A stretch of 64,000 nt of DNA from an uncultured delta proteobacterium (GTDB lineage: Bacteria > Desulfobacterota > Binatia > Binatales > Binataceae): assembly GCA_963801665.1 (NCBI GenBank), contig CAWDFL010000003.1, positions 1,757,748 to 1,821,747 on the forward strand. Reading direction: 5' to 3'. The position numbers and the translations under genes were made by a program. Each line of letters begins with the position of its first letter. Within the stretch, counting starts at the first letter, position 1. The notes beneath the pieces are model-generated. The model was not told the DNA's origin and searched no databases. It was given only the letters and a program-made list of their open reading frames with translations. Positions 8,279 to 38,389 of this stretch are shown here, in pieces.

Positions 8279-8572
8279 TCACGGCATGTTGAAAGCGTCG
8301 CGTGTCTGCAAGTGATCGACCACAGAAACTATTCCGGTGACGCGCAATACCGTCCATCGGATATTCGCGCGGTCCCATTCGGTAGGCACCGTTCCCCACA
8401 GAATCAGCGTGTCTTCCTCGAGCTTGAACTGCACGCCCTTATAGCCCTCCGCGTCGAGCTCGCGCCTGAGCAATTGCAATTGCTCGGGCGTCGCGCCGCC
8501 GTCGAGATCCGGCATCGGGATCGGCATCGGACTCACGTCCGGCGCCAGGCGGCTCCGCGGGCGGCACCGCAA
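8279..8572 (-). CDS. BON-domain ORF overlapping the kinase 3-prime end; a separate small gene or a frameshifted C-terminal extension of the kinase
   Basis: LRRELDAEGYKGVQFKLEEDTLILWGTVPTEWDRANIRWTVLRVTGIVSVVDHLQ resembles a BON domain; the frame is +1 relative to the kinase tail; internal ATGs at 8527 and 8515. Confidence 0.4.
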   Translation of the reverse strand: MRCRPRSRLAPDVSPMPIPMPDLDGGATPEQLQLLRRELDAEGYKGVQFKLEEDTLILWGTVPTEWDRANIRWTVLRVTGIVSVVDHLQTRDAFNMP

Positions 8573-9788: not shown

Positions 9789-9789
9789 C

Positions 9790-20081: not shown

Positions 20082-21586
20082 TTGTTCTTCGCCTGCGCCG
20101 CGTCGAGCGCCAAAATCCGCTTCCGCGCGTTATTGTAGTCGCTCGCGAAGGCGTCGAAAAGTTCCTCGCCGAATTTGCGCTCGTCGTTGCGCACCGCTTC
20201 GTTGTGCTGATCGGCGATCTTGTCGCCCACCTTGGCCAGGAACTCGAGCGTCGGCGAGTATTCGAATTGGCCGGTGAAACCCAGTGCGTAGCGATCAAGC
20301 CCGTCACCCGTGCGGCGCGACGCGAAGGTCGAGCTGAGTCCGCCGTTGCCCTGGGCCAGCACGCGCAGGAACTCGCCCGCGATCAGATCGATCACCTTAT
20401 GGATACCCGGCGGCGCGATCAGCGCTGGCACCTCGTTCATCGTGTTGATCGCGACTATCGAGTCGCCGTCGCGCCGGTAGTCGGTGGTGAAGCCAACTTT
20501 TTCCAGCCCGAAAACCATTCCGAGCCGGTACACGCGCACGGAAGCCTCGGTGCGGTAGCTGCCGTGCTCGACGTTCTGCAGCGCGACGCTTTCGCCCGCG
20601 GGGCGATAATTCTTGTCGAACGGGGTGAGCAGGCCGTTTCGATCCATGAAGGTCAGATGCATCCGCCCGCGATCGAATCGCGAGATCATCCAGTAATTCC
20701 CAGCCGCGTCCTGGATTGCCGACTCAGCAACCAGCACCGGCGCGACCTTGCGATAGAACTCGTAGAGATGCGGATACGCCTTGAGCGCGTCCACCCGGAC
20801 TTCAACGTCGGCATTGAACAGCACGATGGGGCCGCCGGCGCCGTCAAACTCGTCGAGCACGTTGTGAAAGATAAGATAGTGATCGAGCTTGGCGGCGAAG
20901 GCCGGCATCTCGCGATGAAACCGCGCGAGCGCGGCGCGATCGTGGTGATTGAATTCGCCCGGAGCGGTGTCCCACGGCGCTTTCAGATCGCCATGAATTT
21001 GCCGGAGGCCGTCCGCCGCGAGATCGACGACCGCGCTGGCGGGATAAGTATCCATCAGCAGCTCGCCGCCGAGCAGTCCGATGACGCTCGAGGTCCCGGT
21101 GTCCGGCGTGGGAACCGGCGTGATCGTGAACTGTCCGGCCATGTGCTGAGGAGTTTCGGGGCTCACGTACTTGTCCGTCAGCTTGTACAGGTACTCACCC
21201 GATTTCGGGCCGCCCGAGACGGCAATCTGATGCGCTCCGTTCTTGAGCGATTGCCATGGAATATCCGGTTGGGAGTAAAGCGCGGAGGCGCGGATCAGGG
21301 TCGATTCGCGCGGCGGCATCTTTTCGACCAGCTTGGTCAGCGCGTCATCCAGCTCGGGATGAAACGAAATCGCGCGCTGGAAAGCGAGCTGGCGATCGAA
21401 GATAAGGATTGCGCGCGCCGCGCGGTCCGGTCCGGGCGCGGCGAGCTCGATGATCGGCGCGAAAATCGTCTCACTGTCGGGAGCAAATCCCGGCGCAACT
21501 ATCGGAAGGGTCTGCGCCGGTTTGGCGGACGATTGCGCAGCGCCGGCTGCACGTACAAGGCCGGAAAACGCCGGGATCGCCAGCAT
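20078..21586 (-). CDS. Secreted hypothetical protein (about 502 aa), no recognised domain
   Basis: Protein-like composition and N-terminal hydrophobic segment MLAIPAFSGLVRAAGAA; the ORF reads open further upstream (to 22804) but that part is antisense to rpmE/prfA and looks artefactual. Confidence 0.6.
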   Translation of the reverse strand: MLAIPAFSGLVRAAGAAQSSAKPAQTLPIVAPGFAPDSETIFAPIIELAAPGPDRAARAILIFDRQLAFQRAISFHPELDDALTKLVEKMPPRESTLIRASALYSQPDIPWQSLKNGAHQIAVSGGPKSGEYLYKLTDKYVSPETPQHMAGQFTITPVPTPDTGTSSVIGLLGGELLMDTYPASAVVDLAADGLRQIHGDLKAPWDTAPGEFNHHDRAALARFHREMPAFAAKLDHYLIFHNVLDEFDGAGGPIVLFNADVEVRVDALKAYPHLYEFYRKVAPVLVAESAIQDAAGNYWMISRFDRGRMHLTFMDRNGLLTPFDKNYRPAGESVALQNVEHGSYRTEASVRVYRLGMVFGLEKVGFTTDYRRDGDSIVAINTMNEVPALIAPPGIHKVIDLIAGEFLRVLAQGNGGLSSTFASRRTGDGLDRYALGFTGQFEYSPTLEFLAKVGDKIADQHNEAVRNDERKFGEELFDAFASDYNNARKRILALDAAQAKNK

Positions 21587-21706
21587 TGCGGCGATCGCAA
21601 TCGTGGTTAAATTTCGTTGCAGACAGGTACAAGAGCTGCGAATTGTGTGGGATCGCAGTGGATGATATTCTCTAGAGTAAGAGATCGGACCGCGAGAGTT
21701 GAACAA

Positions 21707-21907
21707 ATGAAAGCCGCAATCCATCCCGTATACCGTCGCTGCGTGGTTACCTGCGCCTGCGGCAACACGTTTGAGACCCGCTCGACGGTGGGCGAACTCC
21801 ACGTCGAAGTCTGTTCCAAGTGCCATCCGTTCTACACCGGACAGCAGCGCCTGGTCGATACCGCTGGCCGCGTCGAGCGGTTCAAGCGCAGGTATGGAAT
21901 GAAGTAG
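21707..21907 (+). CDS. rpmE: 50S ribosomal protein L31
   Basis: [47 protein letters not shown] with the CxxC...CxxC zinc ribbon. Confidence 0.9.
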
Positions 21908-21983
21908 CATAGTAACTCCCGCCGCCCGAGGTTGCGGTCCTGAAAAGGATCGCGAAGCCTGCGGGTGCGCGGGGGATTGGTCT

Positions 21984-22016
21984 TGCGGCGGGATGGTTCC
22001 CGCCGCGTTTGTTTTT
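21984..22016 (+). terminator. Rho-independent terminator after rpmE
   Basis: gcggcgggatggttcccgccgc stem-loop followed by gtttgttttt. Confidence 0.6.
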
Positions 22017-22066
22017 GGGGCCCGGGAAATTCTCAGGGGGACGGACGCATAGTCGCCCGGACGGCA

Positions 22067-23128
22067 ATGCTCGACAAACTTCAAGGGATTGAGGATCGCT
22101 ACGCGGAGCTCGAACGCAAGCTCAGCGATCCCGCCGTGACCGCGAACAATCGCGAGTACGCGAAGCTCGCCAAGGAGCGCGCCTCGCTGTCCGAGCTTAT
22201 CGAATCGGCGCGCGAGTATCGCAAGCTTTTGGGCGAAATCGGCGAGCACAAGGCGCTGCTTGAAGGCGACGACCCCGAGCTGCGCGAGCTCGCGAAGGCC
22301 GAGCTGCCCTCGATGCAGAAGCGGCAGGTCCCGCTCGAAGAAAAAATCCGCCAACTGCTGATTCCTCGCGATCCGAACGACGATCGCAACGTGCTGCTCG
22401 AAATCCGCGCGGGCACCGGCGGCGCCGAGGCGTCGCTGTTCGCGGGCGAATTGTTCCGGATGTATTCCCGCTACGCCGAGCGCCACGGCTGGAAAGTCGA
22501 GACGATGAGCCTCTCCGACACCGGGCTCGGCGGGATCAAGGAAGTCATCGCGCTGATCGCGGGACGCGGCGCGTACTCGCGCCTCAAGTTTGAGGGCGGA
22601 GTGCATCGCGTGCAGCGCGTGCCCGAGACCGAAGCCTCCGGCCGCATCCACACCTCGGCGGTGACAGTCGCCGTGATGCCCGAGGCCGACGAGGTCGAGG
22701 TAAATATCAACGAGGAAAAAGATTTGCGCATCGACGTGATGCGCGCGTCGGGTCCGGGCGGGCAGAGCGTCAACACCACCGACTCGGCGGTGCGGATAAC
22801 GCACATTCCGTCGGGGATGGTGATTATCTGCCGCGACGAAAAATCACAGCACAAGAACAAGGCGCGCGCGCTGAAAATCCTGCGCACGCGGCTATTGGAA
22901 AAAGCCCGCGCCGATCAGGACGCGCAAATCGCGGCGACGCGGCGCTCGATGGTCGGGACCGGCGACCGCTCCGAGCGGATCCGCACCTATAACTTTCCCC
23001 AATCCCGTGTGACGGACCATCGCGTCAACGTCACGATTCATCAACTCGACCAGTTCCTGGACGGCGCGATCGATCCGCTGATCGACGCGCTCGCGACCGC
23101 GGAACAGGCGCAGCTCCTGAGCGCCTGA
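22067..23128 (+). CDS. prfA: Peptide chain release factor 1
   Basis: GGQ motif (SGPGGQSVNTTDSAVRITHIPSG), PxT-type RF1 domain, full-length conservation. Confidence 0.95.
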   Translation: MLDKLQGIEDRYAELERKLSDPAVTANNREYAKLAKERASLSELIESAREYRKLLGEIGEHKALLEGDDPELRELAKAELPSMQKRQVPLEEKIRQLLIPRDPNDDRNVLLEIRAGTGGAEASLFAGELFRMYSRYAERHGWKVETMSLSDTGLGGIKEVIALIAGRGAYSRLKFEGGVHRVQRVPETEASGRIHTSAVTVAVMPEADEVEVNINEEKDLRIDVMRASGPGGQSVNTTDSAVRITHIPSGMVIICRDEKSQHKNKARALKILRTRLLEKARADQDAQIAATRRSMVGTGDRSERIRTYNFPQSRVTDHRVNVTIHQLDQFLDGAIDPLIDALATAEQAQLLSA

Positions 23129-23137
23129 GAGCTTGCG

Positions 23138-24022
23138 ATGGCGCCCCGGAACGACGCCGAAGACCGCCGCGCGAATGTGGTCCGCACGCTCGAGGCCGCG
23201 ACCGCGCGCTTGGCGCACGCGGGCGTCGAATCTGCACGGCTGGACGCCGAGCTGATGCTCGCGCGAGCGCTCGAAACGACTCGCGGCGCGATCATCTCCG
23301 CACCAATCGAGATTTCCACAGCCGCTGCCGAGCGCTTCGAGGCGATGCTCTCGCGCCGGGCGGCACGCGAGCCGCTCGCGTACATCCTCGGCTCCAAGGA
23401 ATTTTACTCGCTCGAATTCGAGGTCACGCCGTCCGTTCTCATCCCCCGTCCGGAGACTGAAAGCCTGGTCGCCGCCGCACTCGAATTTGCGGCGCAACAT
23501 CCGAGCGCCCGCGTGCTCGATATCGGGACCGGGTCGGGTGCGATTGCAATTTCGATTGCGGTCAACGCACCGCGCGCGCTCGTCGTCGCGGCGGATATCG
23601 AGCAGGACGCGCTCGCGGTCGCCGGGCACAATGTCGCGCGGCATCATGCAGAGGATCGCGTCGAGCTGCGGCTCGCGGATATTTTCGAGCCTCTCGACAG
23701 CGGTGTGGCGCTCGGGAACTTCGATCTGATCGTCTCCAATCCACCCTATGTCGAAGTCTCGGCGATCGACTCGCTCGCGCCTGAAGTCCGCGACTTCGAG
23801 CCTCCGGCCGCGCTGTTTACGGGAGCCGGCGCGCTCGAATGCTACATGAGGATTGCCGCCGGCGCGTGCGAGCATCTGAATCGCGGCGGTGCGCTGATGG
23901 TCGAAGTCGGCGCGGGGCAGGCGGAGGCGGTTGGCGCGCTCTTTCGCGAGGCGGGATTGCACCTCACGAGTGTGATAAACGATCTGGCCGGGATGGCCCG
24001 CGTCGTGACGGCGCGAGTCTGA
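23138..24022 (+). CDS. prmC: Release-factor glutamine N5-methyltransferase (HemK/PrmC)
   Basis: SAM motif DIGTGSGAIAI and NPPY motif (VSNPPYV); directly downstream of prfA. Confidence 0.9.
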   Translation: MAPRNDAEDRRANVVRTLEAATARLAHAGVESARLDAELMLARALETTRGAIISAPIEISTAAAERFEAMLSRRAAREPLAYILGSKEFYSLEFEVTPSVLIPRPETESLVAAALEFAAQHPSARVLDIGTGSGAIAISIAVNAPRALVVAADIEQDALAVAGHNVARHHAEDRVELRLADIFEPLDSGVALGNFDLIVSNPPYVEVSAIDSLAPEVRDFEPPAALFTGAGALECYMRIAAGACEHLNRGGALMVEVGAGQAEAVGALFREAGLHLTSVINDLAGMARVVTARV

Positions 24023-24029
24023 ATTACAG

Positions 24030-25289
24030 ATGGACAAGATGATCATTCGCGGCGGCAAGCCGCTGCGCGGCACCGTGTCGGTAAGCGGCAGCAAGAATAC
24101 CGCTCTGCCGATTCTGATTGCGTCGCTGCTTACCGACGAGCCGGTCAAGCTCTACAACGTTCCGCGCCTGCGCGACGTGACCACCACGCTCGGCCTGCTC
24201 GGCGATCTCGGCGCCGAAGCGCGATGGACCGGCGACAACGAGGTCGAGGTCTGGGCGAAGAAGATCACCTCGCACGTCGCGCCGTACGAGCTGGTCAAGA
24301 CGATGCGCGCGTCGTTCCTGGTGCTGGGCCCGCTGCTCGCGCGCGAGGGCAGGGCGCGCGTCTCGACTCCGGGAGGATGCGCGATCGGCGCACGGCCGGT
24401 GAATCTGCATATCACCGGAATCCGGGCGCTCGGCGCGAAGGTTCAGTTCCGCAACGGCTACGTCGAGGCGCACGCGCGGCGGCTTACCGGCGCGCGTATC
24501 TGGCTCGATAATCCGTCGGTCGGCGCGACCGAGAACATCATGATGGCCGCGGTCCGCGCGCGCGGGCATAGCCAGATTGAGAACGCGGCGCGCGAGCCGG
24601 AGATTATCGATCTCGCCGCGATGCTCTCCGCGATGGGCGCGAAGATTTCCGGCGCGGGCACGCACGTGATTGAAATTGACGGCGTCGAGCGGTTGCACGG
24701 CGTCGAACACGAGGTCGTCCCCGACCGAATCGAGGCCGGCTCGCTGATGGTCGCGGCCGCTATCACCGGCGGCGACGTGATTATCAACAATGCGCCGCTG
24801 GCGCATCTGGAAGCCGTCACCGCGAAACTGGTCGAGGCTGGGGTCGAGATCACGCACGACAACGGCTCCGTCCGCGTCCGCCGCAACGGCAAGCTCAATC
24901 CGGTCGAGCTGCGCACGCTGCCGTATCCCGGTTTTCCGACCGACCTGCAGGCGCAGATGATGGCGCTTCTGACGCAGGCCTCGGGCACTTCGGTTATCAC
25001 CGAGACGATTTTCGAGAACCGCTTCATGCACGCGCTCGAGCTCATCCGGATGGGCGGAGACATTCTAATGAAGGGCGCGACCGCCGTCGTTCGTGGCCCG
25101 ACGAAGTTGCAGGGCGCTCCAGTGATGGCGACCGACTTGCGCGCGAGCATGAGCCTGATCCTGGCGGGACTCGCCGCCGAACGCAGCACCGAGATTGGCC
25201 GCGTGTATCACCTCGACCGCGGCTACGAGGCACTCGATGCGAAACTGTCGGCGCTCGGCGCGCGGATCGAGCGGGTCAAAGAGTCCTGA
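24030..25289 (+). CDS. murA: UDP-N-acetylglucosamine 1-carboxyvinyltransferase
   Basis: MDKMIIRGGKPLRGTVSVSGSKNTALPIL N-terminus and full-length EPT-fold conservation. Confidence 0.95.
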   Translation: MDKMIIRGGKPLRGTVSVSGSKNTALPILIASLLTDEPVKLYNVPRLRDVTTTLGLLGDLGAEARWTGDNEVEVWAKKITSHVAPYELVKTMRASFLVLGPLLAREGRARVSTPGGCAIGARPVNLHITGIRALGAKVQFRNGYVEAHARRLTGARIWLDNPSVGATENIMMAAVRARGHSQIENAAREPEIIDLAAMLSAMGAKISGAGTHVIEIDGVERLHGVEHEVVPDRIEAGSLMVAAAITGGDVIINNAPLAHLEAVTAKLVEAGVEITHDNGSVRVRRNGKLNPVELRTLPYPGFPTDLQAQMMALLTQASGTSVITETIFENRFMHALELIRMGGDILMKGATAVVRGPTKLQGAPVMATDLRASMSLILAGLAAERSTEIGRVYHLDRGYEALDAKLSALGARIERVKES

Positions 25290-26602
25290 TGAAACTCCGA
25301 ATTCTCAAGTCGGGCACGCCCGCGATGCGCCGGTTCATGGCGATGATAGTTGCGCGGCGCGGCGGCGCCGATGACGCGAAGATCAATGACGCGGTCGCAA
25401 AGATTATCGCCGACGTTCGCCGCCGCGGCGACCGCGCCCTGTTTTATTACACCGAAAAATTCGACGGCGTGAAGCTGACCGCGCGCACGCTGCGCGTCAC
25501 CGCCGTGGAGCTGGCCTCCGCGCCTGGAAAAATTCCCGCACGCGATCGGCGTGCGCTGGAACTGGCCGCACGGCGAATAGCGCGGTTCCATCGCGAGACC
25601 CTCGAGCGTCCGTTCGCGTTTGTCGACGACCTTGGGATGCGCTTGGGACAGCTCGTGTGCCCCTTGCGACGCGTCGGCCTGTACGTGCCCGGAGGGATGG
25701 GCGCGTATCCGTCGTCGGTGCTTATGAATGCAATTCCGGCGCGCGTCGCCGGGGTCGAGGAAATCGTGATGGTTGCGCCGCCCTCGCGCGAGGGCGAACG
25801 CGACGCGGTGATGGCGGCGGCGGCGATCGCGGGAGTGACGGAATACTATCGCGTCGGCGGAGCGCACGCGGTCGCCGCGCTCGCATACGGCACCAAATCG
25901 ATTCGCGCGGTCGACAAGATCGTCGGTCCCGGAAATGCCTACGTGCAGGCCGCCAAGCGGATGGTCTATGGAGTCGCCGATATCGACAAGATGGCGGGGC
26001 CGAGCGAGGTGCTGGTGATCGCCGACGCGAGCGCGCACCCGGCTTGGATCGCCGCCGACCTGATCGCGCAGGCTGAGCATGGCTCGGGCGATGAATCCGC
26101 AATTCTGCTGACGCCCTCGGCTCGTATTGCGCGGGAAGTCGAGCGCGCGCTCGAATCCGCACTCACCACGCTGCCGCGCGCGGCGGCGGTGCGCCGGGTT
26201 CTCGATCGCCGCGGCGCGGTGATTATCGTCAAGGACCTGGAAGAGGCGTTTGCGCTGTCGAACGAAATCGGGCCGGAGCATCTGGAGCTGGAAATTCGTG
26301 ATCCACGCCGATGGCTCAAGAAAGTTCGCGCCGCCGGTGCGGTTTTCTTAGGTGCGATGAGCCCGGCTCCTCTCGGCGACTACCTTGCGGGGCCGAATCA
26401 CGTCCTGCCTACGGGCGGATCGGCGCGCTTCGCCTCGCCCTTGGGTGCATACGATTTCCTCAAGCGAACCAGTATAATCGAGGCCTCGCCGCGCGCGGCG
26501 CGGGAGCTCGGTCCGTCGGTCGCGCATCTGGCGCGGATGGAAGGATTTGAGGGGCATGCGCGTGCGATGGAGCTGCGCAGCCGGGGAAATCACGATGGCT
26601 GA
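25289..26602 (+). CDS. hisD: Histidinol dehydrogenase
   Basis: Full-length HisD conservation (about 430 aa), AQAEHG region. Confidence 0.9.
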   Translation: MKLRILKSGTPAMRRFMAMIVARRGGADDAKINDAVAKIIADVRRRGDRALFYYTEKFDGVKLTARTLRVTAVELASAPGKIPARDRRALELAARRIARFHRETLERPFAFVDDLGMRLGQLVCPLRRVGLYVPGGMGAYPSSVLMNAIPARVAGVEEIVMVAPPSREGERDAVMAAAAIAGVTEYYRVGGAHAVAALAYGTKSIRAVDKIVGPGNAYVQAAKRMVYGVADIDKMAGPSEVLVIADASAHPAWIAADLIAQAEHGSGDESAILLTPSARIAREVERALESALTTLPRAAAVRRVLDRRGAVIIVKDLEEAFALSNEIGPEHLELEIRDPRRWLKKVRAAGAVFLGAMSPAPLGDYLAGPNHVLPTGGSARFASPLGAYDFLKRTSIIEASPRAARELGPSVAHLARMEGFEGHARAMELRSRGNHDG

Positions 26603-27281
26603 AACGAAAAATCGCAAACGAAAGCCTTTGGCGTCTCGCGCCGGTAACGGAACCAGGCGCGCGGTCGTCAGCGTGGCGGGCGACACGCCCCGGCGCTCCG
26701 CCGAGATCGAGCGCAAGACCCGCGAGACGCAGATCGCGCTCGCGCTAAAGCTCGACGGCTCGGGCCGCGGCGAGGTTTCGACCGGAGTTCCGTTCCTCGA
26801 CCACATGCTCGAGAGCTTTGCGCGCCACGGCTTCTTCGACCTCAAGATCGGCGCGCACGGCGATATCGAGATTGATGAGCATCACACGGTCGAGGACGTT
26901 GGGATCGTGCTCGGGCGCGCGTTTCGCCAGGCGCTTGGCGATCGCGCCGGAATCCGCCGCTTCGGCGAGGCGACCGTCCCCCTCGATGAGGCGCTGGTCA
27001 CCGCGGTGGTGGATATCAGCGGGCGCGCCTATCTGGGCTACGAGGTCACGATAACTCAGGAGCGGGTCGGCAATTTCCAGACCGAGCTGGTGCATGATTT
27101 CATGAAAGCGCTCAGCGACGAGACCGGGATGAACCTGCATCTGCGGATGCACTCCGGACGCAACCCGCATCATATCGTCGAGGCGACGTTCAAGGCTCTC
27201 GCGCGCGCGATGGACTCGGCGACCACGCTCGAGCCGCGAGTCGTCGGAGCGTTATCGACCAAGGGCACGCTCGCTTCCTGA
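26595..27281 (+). CDS. hisB: Imidazoleglycerol-phosphate dehydratase
   Basis: IGPD motifs RKTRETQI, DIEIDEHHTVEDVGIVLG, HHIVEATFKALARA; ATG overlaps the hisD stop by 8 nt. Confidence 0.9.
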   Translation: MAETKNRKRKPLASRAGNGTRRAVVSVAGDTPRRSAEIERKTRETQIALALKLDGSGRGEVSTGVPFLDHMLESFARHGFFDLKIGAHGDIEIDEHHTVEDVGIVLGRAFRQALGDRAGIRRFGEATVPLDEALVTAVVDISGRAYLGYEVTITQERVGNFQTELVHDFMKALSDETGMNLHLRMHSGRNPHHIVEATFKALARAMDSATTLEPRVVGALSTKGTLAS

Positions 27282-27284
27282 GCG

Positions 27285-28019
27285 ATGTTCGAGAAGTTCA
27301 CCGTAATTCCCGCGATCGATCTAAAGGGCGGCGAGGTTGTGCGCCTGCTGCGCGGCGATATGGCGCGCGCGACGGTGTATGGCGCCGATCCGGCGGCGGT
27401 GGCGCGCAAGTTTGAGGAGCAGGGCGCCGAGCTGATTCATATCGTCGATCTCGACGGCGCAGTCGCCGGAGCGCCGCGCAACCTGCCCGCGATCGAGCGG
27501 ATCCGCGCGGCCGTAAAATGCGCGATCGACGTGAGCGGAGGGCTGCGCACCATCGAATCGGTGCGCGCCGCGATCTCGTCCGGCGCCGACCGCGTGTCGA
27601 TCGGCTCCGCCGCATTTCTCAACCCCGATCTGGTGCGCAACGCGTGCGCGGAGTTTCCCGGACGCATCTTCGGCTCGCTCGATATCCGCGATGGCAAGCT
27701 GGCGATCAAGGGATGGGTCGAGACGAGCGAACTCACCGTCGAGCGCGCCTGCGCAGTCTTCAAGGACGCGGGCGTGTCGGCCCTGACGGTCACCGATATC
27801 GCGCGTGACGGCGCAGAGACCGGCGTCGACACGGTCAAAATGGCCGCGCTAGCCCACCGAGCAGGACTACCCGTCATCGCCTCGGGGGGAGTCGCCTCTC
27901 TGGCAGACCTGCGAGGGCTGGCCGATCGCTTCAGCGACGGCATGGTTGGAGCAATTGTCGGTCGAGCACTCTATGAAGGGCGCTTCGACCTGCGCTCCGC
28001 GCTCGCTATTTCCCGCTAA
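27285..28019 (+). CDS. hisA: ProFAR isomerase (HisA)
   Basis: VIPAIDLKGGEVVRLLRGD and VDLDGA motifs of the HisA TIM barrel. Confidence 0.85.
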   Translation: MFEKFTVIPAIDLKGGEVVRLLRGDMARATVYGADPAAVARKFEEQGAELIHIVDLDGAVAGAPRNLPAIERIRAAVKCAIDVSGGLRTIESVRAAISSGADRVSIGSAAFLNPDLVRNACAEFPGRIFGSLDIRDGKLAIKGWVETSELTVERACAVFKDAGVSALTVTDIARDGAETGVDTVKMAALAHRAGLPVIASGGVASLADLRGLADRFSDGMVGAIVGRALYEGRFDLRSALAISR

Positions 28020-28392
28020 ATTTCTGCTTCGAGCGCCCGCCTCGGGCTTATAGCCTCGAATCGCATTTTTTTGCGGTCCAGAACTCAAAATCTTTATTAT
28101 ATTCAACTATTTAAGGCACATCGGCGAGTTGTGGGCCGGCCGATTGTTCATAAATCGATCACGCTAATAAGGTCGTCTTAACTGTCTCTGAAGGTTACAG
28201 GACTGTAAAACATATAAGTAAATTATTGACATATCTCTGAGAGTCTTAGAATATATTTACGCATTCAAGAGGAGTTTAGCACCAATAACACGTTAGTAAG
28301 GTCTCCATATCGACCAAAACGCTGGATTAACTTCGCTCGGATAGCATGGGATATACGAAGCGGAAATCGTAGGGACCGGGAGCGCAACCGTG

Positions 28393-28563
28393 ATGGATCT
28401 CATTAGAAGCCTCTATGTTCGAATTTCTGAGAGACCCCGAGGGCAGACGATGAGCGAATACGCCCTGATCGTGGCGGTACTTTCGATCGTAGCTTTCGGA
28501 AGCGTCAAATCGATAGGCAGCACGCTGCACGGCTTGATCAGCAGTGTGGAGGCGTTGCTCTAG
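28393..28563 (+). CDS. flp: Flp/Fap family type IVb pilin (56 aa; below the ORF-track length cutoff)
   Basis: MDLIRSLYVRISERPRG/QTMSEYALIVAVLSIVAF fits the Flp processing motif G-x-T-x-x-EY plus hydrophobic stretch; GGGAG RBS 10 nt upstream; sits in an AT-rich 370-bp leader with a perfect TTGACA -35. Confidence 0.6.
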   Translation: MDLIRSLYVRISERPRGQTMSEYALIVAVLSIVAFGSVKSIGSTLHGLISSVEALL

Positions 28564-28565
28564 AA

Positions 28566-29591
28566 CTACCGCATGACCGAGAATCTTATCGGTCGCAGCC
28601 TGACGGACGGATTCGCGCACATCGGCGGCTTCTTTCCGTTAAAAACCGCGAGAATATTTTCGACCGCCAGCGCAGCCATCCTTTGGCGCGCGGCATAGCT
28701 CGCGCTTCCGATATGGGGCGTGATCACCACGTTTTCCAGCCGCAGCAGAGGATCGTCGCGGCGGATCGGTTCGGGATCGGTCACGTCGATACCCGCACCG
28801 CCCAGATGGCCTGATTTCAGCGCGGGCGCCAGCGCGCGCTGATCGACAACACCTCCGCGCGCGGTGTTGATCAGGATCGCGCCACGCTTCATCCGGCGAA
28901 ATTCCGGCGCGCCCATCAGATGGCGCGTCGCCGCGGTGAGCGGAACGTGCAGCGACACGAAGTCCGACTCCGCGAGCAGCCGACTCATTGTGACGCGCCT
29001 CGCGCCTCCGTCCGGCTTCTCTCCGCGCGTGCGCGAGGATGGCGCTCGCGTGACGTAGAGCACGCGCATCTGGAAGCCCGCCGCGCGCCGGGCTACCGCA
29101 CGTCCGATAGCGCCCCATCCGACGATCCCGAGCGTAGCGCCAAAGACCTCCGGTCCGAGCAGCACGCGCGGTCCCCACGTCTTCCACTTTCCAGCGCGAA
29201 CCTGCCGGTCACCTTCGGCGATACGCCTCGCCGCCGCGAGCATCAGGGCGAACGCGAGGTCCGCGGTCGCCTCGGTCAATACGCCGGGAGTATGGCCGAC
29301 CGCGATCCCCGCGCGCGTGGCGGCCTCAAGATCGATATTGTCCAGTCCGACCGCCAGGTTGCTGACGACTCGCAGCCGCGGCGACGCGGCAAGGAGCGCG
29401 GCGTCGATTCGGTCGGTCACCGTCGTGAGCGCTCCGTCCGCCTCGCGAATCCGGCGGCGGAGCTCGGCGTACGGCGGCGGCATCGGATGAGGCCACAGGT
29501 CGACCCGCGCGTTACGCCGCAAGGCGGCGAGCGCTTCCGGCGCGATCGCTCGGGTAACGAAGACCTTGGGGCGGCGGTGTTTAATCATCAT
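28566..29591 (-). CDS. D-isomer-specific 2-hydroxyacid dehydrogenase (glyoxylate/hydroxypyruvate reductase-like)
   Basis: NAD-binding GIVGWGAIGRAVARR, catalytic His in VITPHIGSAS; stop 3 nt after the convergent flp stop. Confidence 0.85.
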   Translation of the reverse strand: MMIKHRRPKVFVTRAIAPEALAALRRNARVDLWPHPMPPPYAELRRRIREADGALTTVTDRIDAALLAASPRLRVVSNLAVGLDNIDLEAATRAGIAVGHTPGVLTEATADLAFALMLAAARRIAEGDRQVRAGKWKTWGPRVLLGPEVFGATLGIVGWGAIGRAVARRAAGFQMRVLYVTRAPSSRTRGEKPDGGARRVTMSRLLAESDFVSLHVPLTAATRHLMGAPEFRRMKRGAILINTARGGVVDQRALAPALKSGHLGGAGIDVTDPEPIRRDDPLLRLENVVITPHIGSASYAARQRMAALAVENILAVFNGKKPPMCANPSVRLRPIRFSVMR

Positions 29592-29608
29592 TCGTTTTTC
29601 GCGAGACC

Positions 29609-31814
29609 GTGCACGGTTCAAAACGACGCGAAGCTTTGCTATACGCGACGGTTGTGAGTGACTCCACAGTATCGCAGATTATCGCGGACGCCTCGCGCGC
29701 GGGGCGTACCGCACTTTCGGAAATCGAAGCCAAACGGATAGTCGCCGGGCTCGGAATCAACGTCGCGATTCCCGTTGCCGCCGCTACCGCCGACGAGGCC
29801 GCCGCGATCGCGGCGCGGCGGGGTTTTCCGGCCGTGCTCAAGGTGCTCTCGCCGGACGTGAGCCACAAAAGCGAGGTCGGCGGCGTCGAGTTGGGTTTGA
29901 ATTCCGCCGACGAAGTGCGGGCGGCGTTTGCGCGGATCCAAAAGAATCTCGCCGCGAAGGCGCCCGGCGCAAAGTTCGAGGGCGTAGCGATCCAGCCGAT
30001 GGCGGCTGCGGGCGGCGTCGAGCTTCTCGCCGGAATCGTGCGCGACGATCGCTACGGCTCGACGATCATGGTCGGCCTCGGCGGAATTCTGGTCGAGGTG
30101 CTGAAAGACACCGCCGTAAGGCTCGCTCCGATAACCGGGCACGAGGCGCATACGATGCTCTCGGAGTTGCGCGGCGCCGCGCTACTCAGGGGAGTTCGCG
30201 GACGGCCTGCCGCCGATATCGAGGCGGTCGCCTCGATGCTGGTTGCGCTGTCGGAGTTCGCGGCGGCGCATCCTGAAGTTCGCGAGATGGATCTGAATCC
30301 CGTCGTCGCTTACGAACACGGCGTGACGGTGCTCGACGCGCGGGTGCTGCTCGGCGCGCCAGCGGCCGCGGCGATCGCGGATCCGCATCGCGCCGCGCGG
30401 CTCGAGAATCTCAAGCGTGCGTTCAATCCGCGCTCGGTTGTCGTGATCGGCGACAAGAAAGCCGGCGGCTACATGTGGCTGCGCGCGCTAGCGAATCTCA
30501 AGACCAAGCTTTATTCGGTTCAGATCGACCCGAACGAGATCGCGGGAATCGAAGCGATGGGGGTCGAGAATCACAAGAGCCTCTCTGAAATCAAGGAGCC
30601 GATCGACTATGCCGTCAGCGCCGTGCCCCGCCAGGTCGCTCCGCGAATCCTGCGCGACTGCGTCGCGAACAAGGTGGGTTCGATTGGATTTTTCACTTCG
30701 GGATTTTCCGAGACCAGCGAGGAGCTGGGAATCCGGCTCGAAGCCGAGTTGCGCGAGATCGCGCTCGGCTCCGAAATCGCGCTGGTTGGCCCCAACTGCA
30801 TGGGACTCGCGAATCCGTCGATCGGGATGCGCAATTATCCCGACGGCAAAGTCGGCGAGCCCGGCGACGTCTCGCTTCATCTCGCAGAGCGGCACGCACA
30901 CGATAAATTTCTGCGTGCAGGCGGCGGCGCACGGCGTCCGCGTCAACCTGGCGGCGTCGATCGGCAATGTGCTGGTGCTCGAAGCGGCCGACTATATCGA
31001 CCTGATGGCCGCCGATCCGTCCACCAAGGTTATCGGGATGTATATCGAAGGCGTGCGCGACGGCCGCCGCTTCTTCGAGAGCCTGCGCGCGGCGGCGGCA
31101 CGCCATCCGGTCGTGGTATGGAAGGGCGGCGCGACCGAGGCGGGTGCGCGCGCGACGTTTTCGCATACCGGGTCGCTGGCGACGCCGCGGGCGCTGTGGA
31201 GCGCGCTGGTCCGGCAGGCGGGCGCGGTCGAGGTCGGCTCGCTCGACGCGATGCTCGACGCGGTCGAGCTGCTCTCGCGCGGGCGCAAGGTCACGGGCCG
31301 TGCGATGGGACTGGTCGCGATGACGGGCGGGCAATCGGTAGTCGTGACGGACACGTTCGCCGCCGCTGGGCTCGAGATTCCCGCGCTGTCGGACGCGTCA
31401 TACGACGAGCTGAAAACATTCTTCAACGTGATCGGCGGCAGCTACCGCAATCCGCTCGATGCGGGCGGAACGATTGGCTCGGGAGTGCATCCGGGCGGAC
31501 TCGATCGAATCCTCGCGATTCTCGATCGCGATCCGGCGATCGATTCTATCGTGCTCGAAGTCGGCACCGGCTTTCGTGCCGCCCGGTGGGCCACGCATGA
31601 AGACGAAATCACGACGCTGCTCGACAAGCTCAGCGAGTTCGCCACGAAGTCGAGCAAGCCCTTCGCGCTGATACTGCATCCCGCGCACCTCGAGGCGCTC
31701 GTGGCGCGCGGCAAGGAACTCGCGCGCCAGCGCGGCCTGGTAGTCTTCGACAGCTTCGAGCGCGCCGCCGCCGCCTTCGCCACCGCATCGGCGTATTGGC
31801 AAGCGCATCGCTGA
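29609..31814 (+). pseudogene. NDP-forming acyl-CoA synthetase (ATP-grasp plus CoA-binding/ligase domains), split by a +1 frameshift near 30875 (authentic pseudogene or single-base sequencing error)
   Basis: Frame 1 (29609..30880) carries the ATP-grasp and start of the CoA-binding domain and ends ...GEPGDVS; frame +1 (ORF 30609..31814) continues FISQSGTHTINFCVQAAAHG... to the C-terminus; removing one c in tcgcttc joins GDVS-FISQSG. Confidence 0.6.
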
Positions 31815-31864
31815 GCGCTAACCGCCGCGTACTTCGTGTTGCACTGTTGCAGGCCTTTCGACGG

Positions 31865-31990
31865 CGAGCGCGTCGCGACGCGTCCCTACGAATAAATCTT
31901 CTTCGTAGGGGCGGCTCGGGAGCCGCCCGTCTTTCGCGCTGCCTGTCATCCTGAACCAGCGTCGAAGGATCTCCGCGAAGCGAGATCGAT
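31865..31990. repeat. Partial copy of the MITE-like repeat family seen at 35333..35860
   Basis: shares gacgcgtcgcgacgcgtc, cttcgtaggggcggctcgggagccgcccgtctttcgcg and ctgtcatcctgaac...cgaaggatctccgcgaagcga with the larger element. Confidence 0.45.
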
Positions 31991-32018
31991 CGGCTGTATT
32001 TCACTGGCCGGCTCTGCG

Positions 32019-33401
32019 CTACGCGGGCGGCACGACGACCGTCAGTGCGGCGTGAGTGGCGTCGCCGTCGACGATTGCTAGCCATTTCCCTTTCGGCGAC
32101 CAACTCAGCTCGGCGACGCCGCGCGCCTGTCCGTATGCGATTTGAAACGCGTTCTGCGCGTGCGTCGTGTAGGTGATGATCTTGCGCAGCGCGAGCGGAC
32201 TCGCCGGCTGGAAAGTCTGGATCGCCGCGTGATCGATCGCCGTCGAATAGTCCATCGTGCTCGACGCGAGCATTGGCGCCACCGTATTGAATCCGAGCTG
32301 CTTGATATTTATTTCCGGCTCGTCCGGATCAAAGATCGCGAGCTCCGCCTCTACCGGATCGAACGGACGAGTCTCGACCCTCGTGAAAGTCAGTTTCTGA
32401 TTTCCCAACGCCAGCACCGCGCCGCCGGCCGTGTATCCGGCCGCTCCGCTCGCTACGGCGATGGTTTTGTCCTGCCCGTTTGCGATGAAGTGCTCGAACA
32501 CCCCCGCGCTATTGCTCGCCGGAATCGGCTGCACGTACAGGAACGAGCTTTCGTCCACCGGGTTCCATCCGAGCACCCGTACCGGAGCGTTCGCACGCAG
32601 GCGTGTGCAGGTGGAATGACGCCGATCGATCAGCGCAGGCGGAACGCCGTCGCCTCCCGCGCTGACCGCGTAGATTCCGAGCGGGCTCCAGCTAAGCGCG
32701 CCTAGTGTGCACGGCAGCTTCATCGGTGCGACGGAAGCCGGTCCTGTCACCACCAGGATTTGGAGCCCCTCCGACGCCTTCGGCGCCGGCAGCGGCGGCA
32801 ATCCGGCGTCGGCGGGATTGGGAGGCGGAGGAGCGGGCTGATTGACGCTGGGCCGCAGCACGATTGCGATCGAGTCGCTGTTGAGCCAACTGAGGCTTGC
32901 GAGATCGTAAACTCCGTCGAAGCTGGCGACTGGATGGCCGGGTCCGGTCGCGATCAGATCGCGAATTACGATATCGAGACGATTCTGTCCGGCCGCGGCG
33001 ACGGCGAACGCCAGCGACATTCCGTTCGGACTTGGCGCGAAATCCATCAGACGACCCGGCTCAGCCGATCCCTCGCCAGTCTCGGCGCCCAGCACGCGCG
33101 AAGTCTGCCAGTCAGAGCCGCCGAATCCGAGAATCATGACGTTGCCGTTTGCCGTACCGACGACGCCGATCTCGTTGCCGTTCTCAAGCCATATCGGCGG
33201 ATATCCCGCCATCGGCGCAAATCCTTGCGGCAGATCAACCTTGGCCACCACGTGGATGCCGGCGGTGATGTTCAAGGTCGCCGTCATGTCGGTCTGAGGC
33301 ACCAGTTGTTTTTTGGGCGCCTCTTTCGTGAAGAGCGAGCATCCGCCAGCGGACACGAGTACTGCGCAGATCAGGAGGAGGATTAGGAAGGACCTGTTCA
33401 T
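32019..33401 (-). CDS. Lipoprotein, probable beta-propeller (TolB/WD40-like)
   Basis: MNRSFLILLLICAVLVSAGGCS signal peptide and lipobox; Pro-rich linker; repeated beta-strand-rich segments. The ORF-track extension upstream of 33401 is antisense to sppA and was discarded. Confidence 0.7.
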   Translation of the reverse strand: MNRSFLILLLICAVLVSAGGCSLFTKEAPKKQLVPQTDMTATLNITAGIHVVAKVDLPQGFAPMAGYPPIWLENGNEIGVVGTANGNVMILGFGGSDWQTSRVLGAETGEGSAEPGRLMDFAPSPNGMSLAFAVAAAGQNRLDIVIRDLIATGPGHPVASFDGVYDLASLSWLNSDSIAIVLRPSVNQPAPPPPNPADAGLPPLPAPKASEGLQILVVTGPASVAPMKLPCTLGALSWSPLGIYAVSAGGDGVPPALIDRRHSTCTRLRANAPVRVLGWNPVDESSFLYVQPIPASNSAGVFEHFIANGQDKTIAVASGAAGYTAGGAVLALGNQKLTFTRVETRPFDPVEAELAIFDPDEPEINIKQLGFNTVAPMLASSTMDYSTAIDHAAIQTFQPASPLALRKIITYTTHAQNAFQIAYGQARGVAELSWSPKGKWLAIVDGDATHAALTVVVPPA

Positions 33402-33455
33402 TGAAAAACGGTAGTCTAGATTGCGCGGTGCCAAAAGGCGACCGTATAGGCACTC

Positions 33456-35276
33456 ATGAAAAAATCTTTCCTGAAAGACTTGTGGATAAGCCGCGAGCTC
33501 CGGATCGCGGTCGTGGTCGCGATCCTCTGCGCAGCCGGACCTTTCGCCTGTGCCGCCGGTGACTGGAAAATTGGCGTGACGCTGATCGTCGCGGCGGGCG
33601 CGGTCGTGGTGGCGTTCTGGTTGATTGTCGTGCGGCCGGCAAAGCTGCCGCGCGACGCGGTCGTGATCCTCGAGCTCGGCGGCGCGATTCGCGAAGACTC
33701 GCGCCGCTCGCTGCGCCAGCAACTTATCGGCGGCGGCGCGCTGAGCCTGCGTCATCTGCGCTACGGGCTCGAAGCGCTCGCGACTGACACGTCGGTGCGC
33801 GCGGTTATCGTTCATATAACGGGAACCGAAACCGGACTGGCGACAGCGCATGAACTTCATCGTCTGATTCGCGCGGTCAGCAAAAGCGGCAAGCGGGTCG
33901 TCGCGCTTCTGACTGGAGACGCACCCTCGGTCCGCGACTATCTGATCGCCGCGGGCGCGAACGAGATCGTCGCGAATCCGGACGTGATGCTCACGATGCT
34001 GGGCGTGGCGATGGGAAATCCTTTCGTGAAGGGCGCGCTCGAAAAAGCAGGGGTGCGCGCGCAGACGCTGCAATGGAAAGAATACAAGGGCGCGGGTGAG
34101 ATGTTCACGCGCGACGCGATGTCGCCGGAGGTGCGCGAAAGCCTGGACGCGATTATCGGCGACTGGATGCAAATTATCGCAGGCGCGATTTCGGATTCGC
34201 GCCGAATCCCGATCGATCGCGCGCGCGAGCTGGTGAGCTCGGGGTTTATCGGAATGAAAGCGGCGCGTGCGGCGGGACTGGTCGATGGCGACGGCTATAT
34301 CGAAGATCTGCGCGCGGGTTTCGATCCCGACGGCAAGCAAAAATGCTTCGTCAAGTTCTCGCGCTATCTGCGCCACGCCACCTACGTGCGCGAGCGCGGT
34401 AATCGGCCGCAAATCGCGCTTATTGTCGGTGCGGGTCCGGTGATTTCCGGGCAAGCGCGGCCGGGCGGCGAGTACATCTCGGGTGAAACGACCTCCGAGC
34501 TGTTCGAGAAAGCCTCGCGCGAGGAATCGGTGCGCGCGATCGTGTTCCGCGTCAACTCTCCCGGCGGATCCGCGGTCGGCTCCGACATGGTGTGGCGCGC
34601 GGTGCGTGAGGCGCAGGGACGCGGCAAGCCGGTTATCGTGTCGATGGGCGACGTGGCGGGCTCGGGCGGCTACTACGTTGCGATGGGGGCGGACGCGATC
34701 GTGGCTGAGCCGGCCGCGATCACGGGTTCGATCGGAGTGGTGTTTGCGAAATTCGATCTGTCGGCGATGCTCGCGCGGCTCGGCGTCCGGTTCGATTACG
34801 CCAAGAGCGACGCCCGCAGCGACGCGATGTCCTTTGCGCGTCCGATGAGCGACGACGAGCTTGGACAGATCAACACGGCGATCGGAGAAGTGTATGGCAA
34901 CTTCACCGGCAAAGTCGCCGAGGGCCGCCGCCTGGACGCCGAACAGGCCGAGGCGCTGGCCAAGGGACGCGTGTGGAGCGGAGTTGCCGCCAAGCAGCGG
35001 GGTCTGGTTGATGAATTGGGCGGGATGGCGCGAGCGATCGAGATCGCGCGCGAGCGTGCGCATATCCCCAAGGATCAAGCGCATCAGGTCGTCAAGTACG
35101 CGCCCAGCGAAGGGTTCCTGTCGCTATGGGGATACTTCATGCCGGCAGCGGCAACCTCGTGGAGCATTGATCTGATCGCGAGCGCGCTAGGAGTCCCGTC
35201 CAGATGGGCGCCGGCGATGGCTACGCTCCTGATCCGCGGCGGCGCTCTGCTGATCTGCCCATGGCTCGAGCGGTAG
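33456..35276 (+). CDS. sppA: Signal peptide peptidase A (protease IV, S49 family, two-domain 67K type)
   Basis: Tandem S49 ClpP-fold domains, N-terminal TM anchor, Ser/Lys dyad regions (GGSAVGSD...). Confidence 0.85.
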   Translation: MKKSFLKDLWISRELRIAVVVAILCAAGPFACAAGDWKIGVTLIVAAGAVVVAFWLIVVRPAKLPRDAVVILELGGAIREDSRRSLRQQLIGGGALSLRHLRYGLEALATDTSVRAVIVHITGTETGLATAHELHRLIRAVSKSGKRVVALLTGDAPSVRDYLIAAGANEIVANPDVMLTMLGVAMGNPFVKGALEKAGVRAQTLQWKEYKGAGEMFTRDAMSPEVRESLDAIIGDWMQIIAGAISDSRRIPIDRARELVSSGFIGMKAARAAGLVDGDGYIEDLRAGFDPDGKQKCFVKFSRYLRHATYVRERGNRPQIALIVGAGPVISGQARPGGEYISGETTSELFEKASREESVRAIVFRVNSPGGSAVGSDMVWRAVREAQGRGKPVIVSMGDVAGSGGYYVAMGADAIVAEPAAITGSIGVVFAKFDLSAMLARLGVRFDYAKSDARSDAMSFARPMSDDELGQINTAIGEVYGNFTGKVAEGRRLDAEQAEALAKGRVWSGVAAKQRGLVDELGGMARAIEIARERAHIPKDQAHQVVKYAPSEGFLSLWGYFMPAAATSWSIDLIASALGVPSRWAPAMATLLIRGGALLICPWLER

Positions 35277-35332
35277 GTCCGTCGCCTCCTGTCTGATCCC
35301 TCGCTCTGAGGAGCGTGTCGATAAATGCTGAG

Positions 35333-35860
35333 TTCCTGTCCGTCATCCTGAACGAAGTGAAGGATCTCCGCGAAGCGATTAGTGCGCAAAGCCCGGATTG
35401 GTTGCACTAATCGCTTCGCGGAGATCCTTCGCCTGCGGCTCAGACCTTCACGAGTCCTTCGGACCCGCCACGCGGGACGAAAGTTAGCGTATAGCAACAG
35501 GCTGCGCGAAAGACGGGCGGCTCGCGAGCCGCCCCTACGAAGACTTGTGCGGCTGTCATTCCCGCGCGTGGCTGCCGCGCGAGGAATCCCGGGCGAAGGG
35601 TTGCTGCATGTGGTGTTGGCGTCGAGCATGGCCGCTTCGGGATTTCTCGCGCAGCGCTCGAAATGACACCCGGGGCGTGGCCGAGATACGATTCGCATCG
35701 CTCCACCGAGTTTCATGGCAGGATGACGGACAGGCTCGGCCGTGTTGATCAATGATGCGCGAAAGGCGAGCGGCTCCCACGAAGAAGATCCGATTCGGAT
35801 CGAGCGAATGAATTCTCGATTTTGTAGGACGCGTCGCGACGCGTGGGTCAGGATGCTGTT
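35333..35860. repeat. Dense cluster of nested inverted repeats (MITE/REP-like) with terminal inverted repeats cctgtccgtcatcctg ... caggatgacggacagg
   Basis: TIRs at 35337 and 35722; internal palindromes gaaggatctccgcgaagcgattagtgc/gcactaatcgcttcgcggagatccttc, gggcggctcgcgagccgccc, gtcattcccgcg.../...cgaaatgac; modules shared with 31865..31990 and 8121..8225. Confidence 0.55.
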
Positions 35861-35876
35861 CTGCGCGCTTCTTGGT

Positions 35877-36674
35877 TCAGCGCACGGCGGACTCTTCCTG
35901 CTGCATCGCGGCGTGAATCTTTCCGTTCGAGGCCACGATATTTGCGCCGCTGATATCGAGCGGGCTGCCGTCCATGTTCGCTACGCTGCCGCCCGCTTCC
36001 TCGATCAAGAGCGCACCCGCGGCGACATCCCACGCCTTGAGGCCGAACTCCCAGAATCCGTCCGTGCGTCCGCTGGCGACGTTGGCCAGATCGAGCGCGG
36101 CCGCGCCCGTGCGCCGCACGCCGTGCGAGCACATCATGAAGGCTTCCCAAAACGCGAGATAGAAGCGGCGGCGCTCGCGGCGGTCGTAGGGAAAGCCGGT
36201 CGCGAGCAACGCGGAGCCGATGACCGGAGTCGCGCTCACCCTGATTGGCTTGCCATTAAGCTTCGCGCCGCGTCCGCGTTGCGCGGTGAAACATTCCTTG
36301 TGCAGCGCGTCGTAAATAACGCCGAAGCGGGTTTCTCCGCGGCGTTGGTATGCGATCGACACGCAGAACTGCGGGAACGCATGCGCAAAGTTGGTGGTGC
36401 CGTCGAGCGGGTCGACAATCCATCGATGATCGCTCTGATGCGCGCTGGCGCCGCTTTCCTCGGCCAGGATCGCGTGAGTAGGAAACGCGCGATGGATCAG
36501 CTCGATCACCGCCGCTTCGGATTCTCGATCGGCCTCGGTGACCAGATCGATCGAGTTGGATTTGCGGTCGATCGTGATGCGCGAGAGGCGCTTCAGATGA
36601 ATCTTTCCGGCGGCGCGCGCGGCGCGCATCGCGACTTGCTCGATTTCGGTTGGCACGGACTGAAGATAGTTCAC
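35877..36674 (-). CDS. suhB: Inositol monophosphatase family protein (SuhB-like)
   Basis: IMPase motifs WIVDPLDGTTNF and metal-binding Asp/Glu positions. Confidence 0.85.
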   Translation of the reverse strand: MNYLQSVPTEIEQVAMRAARAAGKIHLKRLSRITIDRKSNSIDLVTEADRESEAAVIELIHRAFPTHAILAEESGASAHQSDHRWIVDPLDGTTNFAHAFPQFCVSIAYQRRGETRFGVIYDALHKECFTAQRGRGAKLNGKPIRVSATPVIGSALLATGFPYDRRERRRFYLAFWEAFMMCSHGVRRTGAAALDLANVASGRTDGFWEFGLKAWDVAAGALLIEEAGGSVANMDGSPLDISGANIVASNGKIHAAMQQEESAVR

Positions 36675-38313: not shown

Positions 38314-38360
38314 AAGCCCCGCTGGTTTCGGAACCGGCGGGGCTTTTGTTTTTTTGTTTT
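38314..38360 (+). terminator. Intrinsic terminator/attenuator hairpin with long T tract
   Basis: aagccccgc-tggtttcggaacc-gcggggctt followed by ttgtttttttgtttttg. Confidence 0.7.
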
Positions 38361-38389
38361 TGTCGTTGGGTTTGTTTTGGAGGGGAGCG

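Follow-up and report, generated by a model that had tools for sequence, protein, structure and literature searches.

The 64-kb stretch of Binataceae DNA analyzed here (the window) carries a hisD-hisB-hisA run whose last gene, hisA, is followed by an AT-rich intergenic spacer, a small open reading frame (ORF), here called flp, and a convergent D-2-hydroxyacid dehydrogenase gene. hisA forms the upstream flank of an arrangement that is conserved among related loci. The features of the interval are as follows.

27285-28019, plus strand: hisA, a 244-aa ORF whose orthologues match PF00977 (His_biosynth), with synteny found by tblastn in loci L013, L014, L015, and L048.
28020-28392, no strand: AT-rich intergenic spacer of 373 nt, G+C content 0.43, minimum 0.365.
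28039-28055, plus strand: the 17-mer GCCTCGGGCTTATAGCC, 20 nt past the hisA stop codon, with 14 of its 17 positions identical in a six-sequence alignment of orthologous loci (alignment A1).
28226-28231, plus strand: TTGACA, the -35 hexamer of the putative flp promoter, invariant in alignment A1.
28249-28254, plus strand: GAATAT, a candidate -10 hexamer at a spacing of 17 nt, inside the block TAGAATATATTTAC.CATTCAAG.
28261-28392, plus strand: unstructured 5' leader of ~130 nt, as predicted from the position of the promoter.
28378-28382, plus strand: Shine-Dalgarno sequence GGGAG, 10 nt ahead of the ATG; GGAG or GGAGG occupies the same place in all orthologues.
28390 (GTG) or 28393 (ATG) to 28563, plus strand: the small ORF, with the product MDLIRSLYVRISERPRG|QTMSEYALIVAV..., 56 aa counted from the ATG.
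28393-28443, plus strand: leader peptide, codons 1 to 17 (MDLIRSLYVRISERPRG), with a predicted prepilin-peptidase cut after Gly17.
28444-28563, plus strand: predicted mature Flp pilin of 39 aa, QTMSEYALIVAVLSIVAFGSVKSIGSTLHGLISSVEALL, and stop codon; a Flp_Fap match extends over residues 17 to 54.
28566-29621, minus strand: D-2-hydroxyacid dehydrogenase (PF02826 and PF00389), in the same place in all orthologous loci.

The G+C content of the spacer (0.43) lies far below that of the window as a whole (0.633). Its lowest 200-bp segment, starting at 28061 to 28091, reaches 0.365, which is 6.1 standard deviations below the mean, and outside the hisA-flp spacer the minimum for a 200-bp segment anywhere in the 64 kb is 0.47. 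A first-pass annotation of this DNA had described an AT-rich region after hisA, a perfect TTGACA, and a 56-codon ORF beyond it; all three are present, at 28020-28392 (no other part of the window is as AT-rich), 28226-28231, and 28393-28563. It also placed the end of the ORF 3 nt from the convergent dehydrogenase stop. The two ends are indeed close, but the gap between the stop codon of flp and that of the dehydrogenase gene (28566-28568) measures 2 nt (28564-28565).

The interval 28393-28563 is a real, conserved gene of 56 codons (full product, MDLIRSLYVRISERPRGQTMSEYALIVAVLSIVAFGSVKSIGSTLHGLISSVEALL), and it is under purifying selection in both the leader and the mature part. Between orthologues, dN/dS ranges from 0.13 to 0.41, and synonymous divergence (dS) reaches 0.9 to 1.3; variable columns of the orthologue alignment are distributed 13/16/34 over the three codon positions, and pN/pS is 0.25 for the leader codons and 0.34 for the mature part. 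The ATG at 28393 is conserved across orthologues and the GTG one codon upstream, at 28390, is not, indicating that translation starts at the ATG.

Five close homologues are present in public data, 81 to 100% identical to the window's Flp, some of them titled [quoted passage not shown] Four of the five (P0001 to P0004) were called at 56 to 57 aa, but the public gene call for the identical sequence (P0005) begins at the internal Met20 and has only 37 aa. A leaderless peptide of this length (MSEYALIV...), initiated at the ATG at 28450, would have a GAGG approximately 9 nt ahead of its start codon. We nevertheless find such a product barely credible. In L009 and L014, codon 20 reads GCG (Ala) and offers no start, so the 37-aa call must be wrong; moreover, the 19 codons that it omits evolve at a pN/pS of 0.25, both the upstream ATG and the GGAG ahead of it are conserved, the other four homologues carry the longer reading frame, and a pilin lacking both the leader and the Gly cleavage site would be a misfit in its family. 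The annotation is corrected accordingly, with flp encoding 56 aa.

The first-pass annotation identified the product as a Flp prepilin and proposed alignment to the Pfam family Flp_Fap (PF04964) as a check. As a single protein, Flp matches this family over residues 17 to 54 with an E value of 2.6e-6, which is statistically significant, but its score of 27.6 bits is under the Pfam gathering score of 32.2 bits. Sub-threshold Pfam scores are common among very short proteins. An NCBIfam search with the Flp protein returned no match. A profile built from five close sequences recovered at least 500 small relatives from a library of 1.84 billion representative proteins at a cutoff E value of 1e-3 or better, and 56 of the 58 relatives that were aligned match Flp_Fap individually (best E value, 1.7e-10). 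Searched against the sequences of the PDB, the profile of this 58-member family had only two matches, both of them Tad pilins: Caulobacter crescentus PilA (8U1K; E = 5.2e-7) and C. crescentus bNY30a Flp (8U2B; E = 2.6e-6). In both cases, Glu22 and Tyr23 of the prepilin align onto Glu5 and Tyr6 of the mature protein, the register expected of cleavage after Gly17.

The predicted processing site reads ...ERPRG|QTMSEYALIVAVLSIVAF, which presents a G/xxxxEY motif followed by a hydrophobic stretch, and Gly17, Gln18, Glu22, and Tyr23 are invariant or nearly so over the 58 relatives. Together, the motif and the alignment to the PDB sequences point to removal of the leader after Gly17, which would leave a mature N terminus of Q1 T2 M3 S4 E5 Y6; Thr2, Glu5, and Tyr6 are conserved residues of Tad pilins (PMC10710030). 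Among the six-frame ORFs of the window, flp is the sole carrier of a G-x4-E-[YF]-hydrophobic motif. The AlphaFold2 model (alignment A3; pLDDT of 87.8) consists of a leader helix at residues 2 to 12, a loop at 13 to 19 around the cleavage site, and a single helix at 20 to 55 with pLDDT above 93, without a globular domain. A Foldseek search of the PDB with this model gave no match, which is uninformative for a bare helix. The identification as a Flp prepilin is thus sustained by the significant, if sub-gathering, Flp_Fap score, its recurrence in nearly all relatives, the alignment to 8U1K and 8U2B, and the single-helix model.

Scanning the family alignment against GTDB species representatives yielded 36 loci, nearly all from Binataceae metagenome-assembled genomes (MAGs). 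The order hisA-spacer-flp-dehydrogenase recurs in every related Binataceae locus recovered (L001 to L015 and L048), and hisD-hisB-hisA ... dehydrogenase synteny is evident in L013, L014, L015, and L048. At L048, where hisA is 67% and Flp 38% identical to those of the window, the site holds two tandem flp genes. Orthologous spacers are 353 to 430 nt long, with G+C contents of 0.44 to 0.46 within DNA of 0.60 to 0.64.

In 17 to 18 other Binataceae loci, flp genes are followed downstream by one and the same set of co-directional gene clusters. Pfam matches at the tad locus L028 comprise RcpC/CpaB, a secretin, a ParA-like TadZ/CpaE, a T2SSE ATPase (CpaF/TadA), and two T2SSF proteins (TadB/TadC), and precomputed Pfam hits show the same tad set in L049 to L054. 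The tad loci that were inspected closely (L028, L049, and L053) each have three tandem flp genes, two of which end in ...D.QL and one in ...GPLL. Some tad loci also contain TadE-like pseudopilins of ~130 aa. Both arrangements occur in one MAG, MFD03044.bin.1.149, which has a hisA-linked flp (L014, 80% identical to that of the window) and, on another contig, a full tad locus (L028).

The tad-linked flp1, flp2, and flp3 (for example, L028, 9995-10680, and L053, 9013-9735) resemble the hisA-linked gene in the RGQTM[ST]EYALI core, in lineage, and in a mature length of 39 aa, which is common to all paralogue classes. They differ from it at the C terminus (...V[EV]ALL in the hisA-linked Flp versus ...D.QL or ...GPLL) and in overall sequence: the mean identity of hisA-linked Flp to each tad-linked class is 42%, whereas identities within the tad-linked classes are 69 to 72%.

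The compositional contrast at this locus led the first-pass annotation to suggest horizontal acquisition. If that acquisition were recent, the spacer and flp would be an islet that had entered between hisA and the dehydrogenase gene. The contrast is strong (G+C contents of 0.365 to 0.45 against 0.63), and the flp ORF itself has a G+C content of 0.53 and a GC3 of 0.66, compared with a GC3 of 0.78 for hisA. However, the same arrangement, with an equally AT-rich spacer, is found in L001 to L015, and the arrangement extends to L048 despite the low identities there. The conservation of AT-richness among orthologues indicates that the regulatory region has kept this composition over time and that it does not mark a recent arrival, and a dS of 0.9 to 1.3 indicates that the arrangement is old. 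The tad-linked flp1 has a G+C content of 0.54, equal to that of the flp ORF, indicating that the composition of the ORF follows from the amino acid content of the family. Signatures of mobility are likewise lacking: there are no tRNA genes in 20000-36000, no direct repeats of ≥14 nt in 27600-29000, and no integrase or transposase, and the neighbors of flp are housekeeping genes. Because gene, flanks, spacer, and promoter-like element come back in every related locus recovered, a recent horizontal acquisition is largely refuted, and we regard it as highly improbable. Judged by its position and divergence, the hisA-linked flp is an additional pilin gene of long standing that the Binataceae have inherited vertically.

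The strongest conservation in the spacer falls in TTGACATATC ... TAGAATATATTTAC.CATTCAAG, an invariant block in alignment A1. In the window and in L013, L014, and L015, TTGACA precedes the ATG by 167 to 176 nt; in L048, it lies at -304. In all five hisA-linked lineages examined, GA[AG][AT]AT follows TTGACA by exactly 17 nt. The combination TTGACA-17 nt-GAATAT has the form of a sigma-70-type promoter whose -35 hexamer is perfect and whose -10 hexamer is weak, matching the consensus at 3 of 6 positions; an alternative -10 hexamer, TAGAAT (28247-28252), would have a spacing of 15 nt. A simple scan for sigma-70 consensus promoters and for terminators called neither a promoter, which is attributable to the 3-of-6 match of the -10 hexamer, nor a terminator-like site.

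This element is absent upstream of tad-linked flp genes, which mostly also have less AT-rich upstream regions. The G+C content of the 200 bp upstream is 0.42 to 0.47 for hisA-linked flp and 0.47 to 0.63 for tad-linked flp, and that of the 400 bp upstream of tad-linked flp is 0.52 to 0.59 in most loci. These differences suggest that the hisA-linked flp, with a putative TTGACA promoter of its own, is probably regulated separately from the tad-linked genes.

An AT-rich regulatory leader was the other explanation offered by the first-pass annotation for the unusual composition, and its two aspects fared differently: a conserved promoter-like element (TTGACA-17 nt-GA[AG][AT]AT) is present, but a conserved RNA structure or an Rfam match is not. 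The length of the spacer (373 nt), its conserved patches, and two weak direct-repeat pairs within it might be taken to signify a structured regulatory RNA (a riboswitch or small RNA) or another small gene. Yet the consensus fold of the leader (RNAalifold) has an energy of only -0.23 kcal/mol, with no conserved structure, and the window's own leader folds more weakly than its shuffles (z = +1.46). The best Rfam match in the spacer has an E value of 8.3, to a eukaryotic snoRNA family; the upstream half is poorly conserved and has indels whose lengths are not multiples of three, so that it cannot hold a conserved ORF; and a terminator-like site is lacking. A hidden RNA or gene of this kind is very unlikely. 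The 17-mer GCCTCGGGCTTATAGCC was considered as a terminator hairpin or repeated element and rejected, since it occurs once in the window and its orthologues do not fold into a common hairpin. With the two tandem flp genes of L048 in view, we also considered whether a second flp copy had decayed in the upstream half of the spacer. This was likewise rejected as unsupported, because that half contains no Flp-like frame and its G+C content is far under that of any flp gene.

The annotation's observation that tad/cpa assembly genes are missing from the window withstood closer inspection. In tblastn searches of the window with six Binataceae proteins from a sibling genome (RcpC, secretin, TadZ, CpaF, TadB, and TadC), no match was better than E = 0.27, and Pfam scans of ~50 ORFs of the window detected metabolic and housekeeping families only, so that the 28 kb upstream of flp and the 35 kb downstream of it are free of tad genes. 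Searches for CpaF and RcpC and the listings of cluster members gave no member on the contig that carries the identical Flp; two candidates for tad matches from the window's own genome, P0160 and P0304, were discarded because they belong to other MAGs or samples. The A24 peptidase motif G-x-G-D-[VAIFLM]-K-[LMFYV] is absent from the window and from the 54 fetched loci. A literature search on Tad pili in Binatia, Binatota, or Binataceae returned nothing.

The distance of flp from any assembly gene and the failure of the motif scan of the window and 54 loci to find a peptidase would be compatible with a relic of the Flp family, or with a small membrane peptide, that has ceased to be built into pili and may be silent or co-opted for another membrane function. 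There is a precedent in flp3 of Bdellovibrio bacteriovorus, a non-tad gene that is silent (PMC5430801), and the sequence class of the hisA-linked Flp (IVAVLSIV...ALL) shares only some 42% identity with the tad-linked classes. But purifying selection acts on both leader and mature part, and the promoter block, the ribosome-binding site, the cleavage motif, Thr2/Glu5/Tyr6, and the exact mature length of 39 aa have all been kept. Constraints of this kind would not be expected unless the protein still had to be processed and assembled, and we judge a relic to be unlikely.

Our preferred reading, which we hold to be probable, is that 28393-28563 is a functional Flp/Tad (type IVc) prepilin gene, a fourth, stand-alone paralogue beside the three tad-operon flp genes of Binataceae genomes. 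We infer promoter activity, cleavage, pilus assembly, and the existence of a tad locus in this genome. The gene would be transcribed from its own sigma-70-type promoter in the AT-rich spacer (TTGACA at 28226, with GAATAT 17 nt on), producing a transcript that begins at about 28261 with an unstructured leader of ~130 nt and that would be translated from the ATG at 28393 behind GGGAG. The resulting 56-aa prepilin would be inserted into the inner membrane, where an A24-family prepilin peptidase would remove the 17-residue leader after Gly17. The 39-residue single-helix pilin, with Thr2, Glu5, and Tyr6 in place, would then be polymerized, as an alternative major subunit or a co-assembling one, by a Tad apparatus whose genes lie in another part of the genome and which consists of the CpaF/TadA ATPase, the TadB/C platform, RcpC/CpaB, and the secretin.

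The Binataceae protein has the characteristics of the Flp/Fap pilins represented by 8U1K and 8U2B, which are likewise short prepilins with a basic leader ending in Gly, a G/xxxxEY motif, and Thr2/Glu5/Tyr6, and whose mature form is likewise a single hydrophobic-to-amphipathic helix of ~40 aa without a globular domain. It departs from them in a mature length of 39 aa, compared with 45 in the solved Caulobacter Tad pilins, and in having Ala at mature position 7, where the Caulobacter flp motif has Gly. Furthermore, flp is here not adjacent to cpa/tad genes, and its single-sequence score is under the Pfam gathering threshold.

Stand-alone flp genes have been reported in other bacteria. In B. bacteriovorus, flp4 is neither tad-linked nor FliA dependent and is needed for predation (PMC5430801). 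Sinorhizobium meliloti smc02446 is an orphan flp, and ctpA and pilA of Agrobacterium (A. fabrum) are interchangeable (PMC10934763). As in the Binataceae, flp3 and flp4 of Bdellovibrio, pilA of Agrobacterium (versus ctpA), and smc02446 of S. meliloti are stand-alone paralogues in lineages that also have tad-linked flp, and their promoters are unlike that of the tad operon. These cases rest on genetic or expression data, and that of the Binataceae flp on sequence analysis. Peculiar to the Binataceae gene are its conserved position between hisA and the 2-hydroxyacid dehydrogenase gene across a family-level lineage and its markedly AT-rich upstream region. The hisA-linked flp is an orphan Flp paralogue with a putative promoter of its own. 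Genes of this kind are ordinary, and orphan flp paralogues are already documented in several bacteria. A compositional dip beside a tiny gene resembled an acquired islet, and its relatives reveal an old, maintained regulatory region.

The Binataceae, an abundant uncultured soil lineage, have Tad loci with three tandem flp genes, to which one sublineage adds a fourth at a conserved site. Rather unlikely, though conceivable, is the more specific proposal that the hisA-linked Flp serves as an alternative major pilin with a regulatory input of its own, and that nucleoid-associated or silencer-type control acts on its conserved, unusually AT-rich 370-bp upstream region. If this were true, Binataceae could switch or mix the surface-forming subunits of one Tad machine (four classes, each of 39 aa) according to condition, and a pilin-switching scheme would exist in an uncultured phylum-level lineage without studied pili. 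These findings make a small contribution to the question of how Binataceae may attach to surfaces.

The length assigned to the flp product varies with the choice of start codon. In at least one public annotation of this gene (P0005, a protein record of identical sequence), a 37-amino-acid product is called from an internal ATG (window 28450-28563), and the leader peptide and cleavage site are lost in this call. Conservation establishes the 56-amino-acid form as the correct product.

Two very long open reading frames, both on the minus strand, encode 908 (window 20078-22804) and 1,021 (32019-35084) amino acids. They are antisense to real genes (those for RF-1 and an S49 peptidase), neither has a Pfam match, and they are most likely spurious antisense ORFs, which are typical of high-GC DNA. 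A gene resembling ADP-forming acyl-CoA synthetases (29609-31814; domains ATP-grasp_5, CoA_binding_2 and Succ_CoA_lig) is a single 740-amino-acid ORF in L007, a relative's locus, whereas it occupies two frames in the window: by tblastn, frame 2 covers residues 8 to 429 and frame 3 covers residues 417 to 740, with the junction near 30840-30877. Either the assembly carries an indel at this point or the gene is a pseudogene. A further pair of ORFs, 38354-39424 and 39099-39641 (region 38354-39641), overlap but are read in different frames, and each of them matches MFS_1; this looks like a second gene split by a frameshift and once more points to indel errors in the assembly.

In the Binataceae loci examined in detail (L028, L049 and L053), each tad locus contains three tandem flp genes, with two of the products ending in ...D.QL and one in ...GPLL. 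These genes are followed on their 3' side by rcpC, the secretin gene, tadZ, cpaF, tadB and tadC. No A24 prepilin peptidase was found within 10 kb of these tad loci, and in some loci (L018, L031, L032 and L035) an additional TadE-like pseudopilin of about 130 amino acids is encoded past the flp genes. In L048, from a more distant Binataceae genome whose hisA is 67% identical, the interval between hisA and the dehydrogenase holds two tandem flp genes, not one.

L028 9995-18810, Binataceae tad locus (others: L049, L050, L051, L053)
L048 5117-5287 and 5377 onward, tandem flp genes, type ...DL

Secretion or pilus systems are sometimes accompanied by FHA and kinase modules. At 8439-11464 (-) in the window, a Ser/Thr protein kinase (Pkinase) gene adjoins a gene for a protein with two FHA domains; no link between these genes and the flp gene was seen.

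The AT-rich spacer upstream of the flp gene contains the following elements:

28039-28055, nearly invariant 17-mer, 20 nt past the hisA stop, GCCTCGGGCTTATAGCC
28098-28115 and 28252-28269, imperfect direct repeat pair 1, TATATTCAACTATTTAAG / TATATTTACGCATTCAAG
28160-28174 and 28289-28303, imperfect direct repeat pair 2, CACGCTAATAAGGTC / CACGTTAGTAAGGTC

In both repeat pairs, the second copy lies inside the putative promoter block (TTGACA, 28226-28231; candidate GAATAT, 28249-28254) or just downstream, and the pairs could represent paired regulator sites or chance matches, given the AT-rich DNA. The 17-mer has no further copy in the window and forms no hairpin consistent among orthologues. It is kept in all orthologous loci while the surrounding DNA varies, and it may be a 3' element of the his operon or a protein-binding site.
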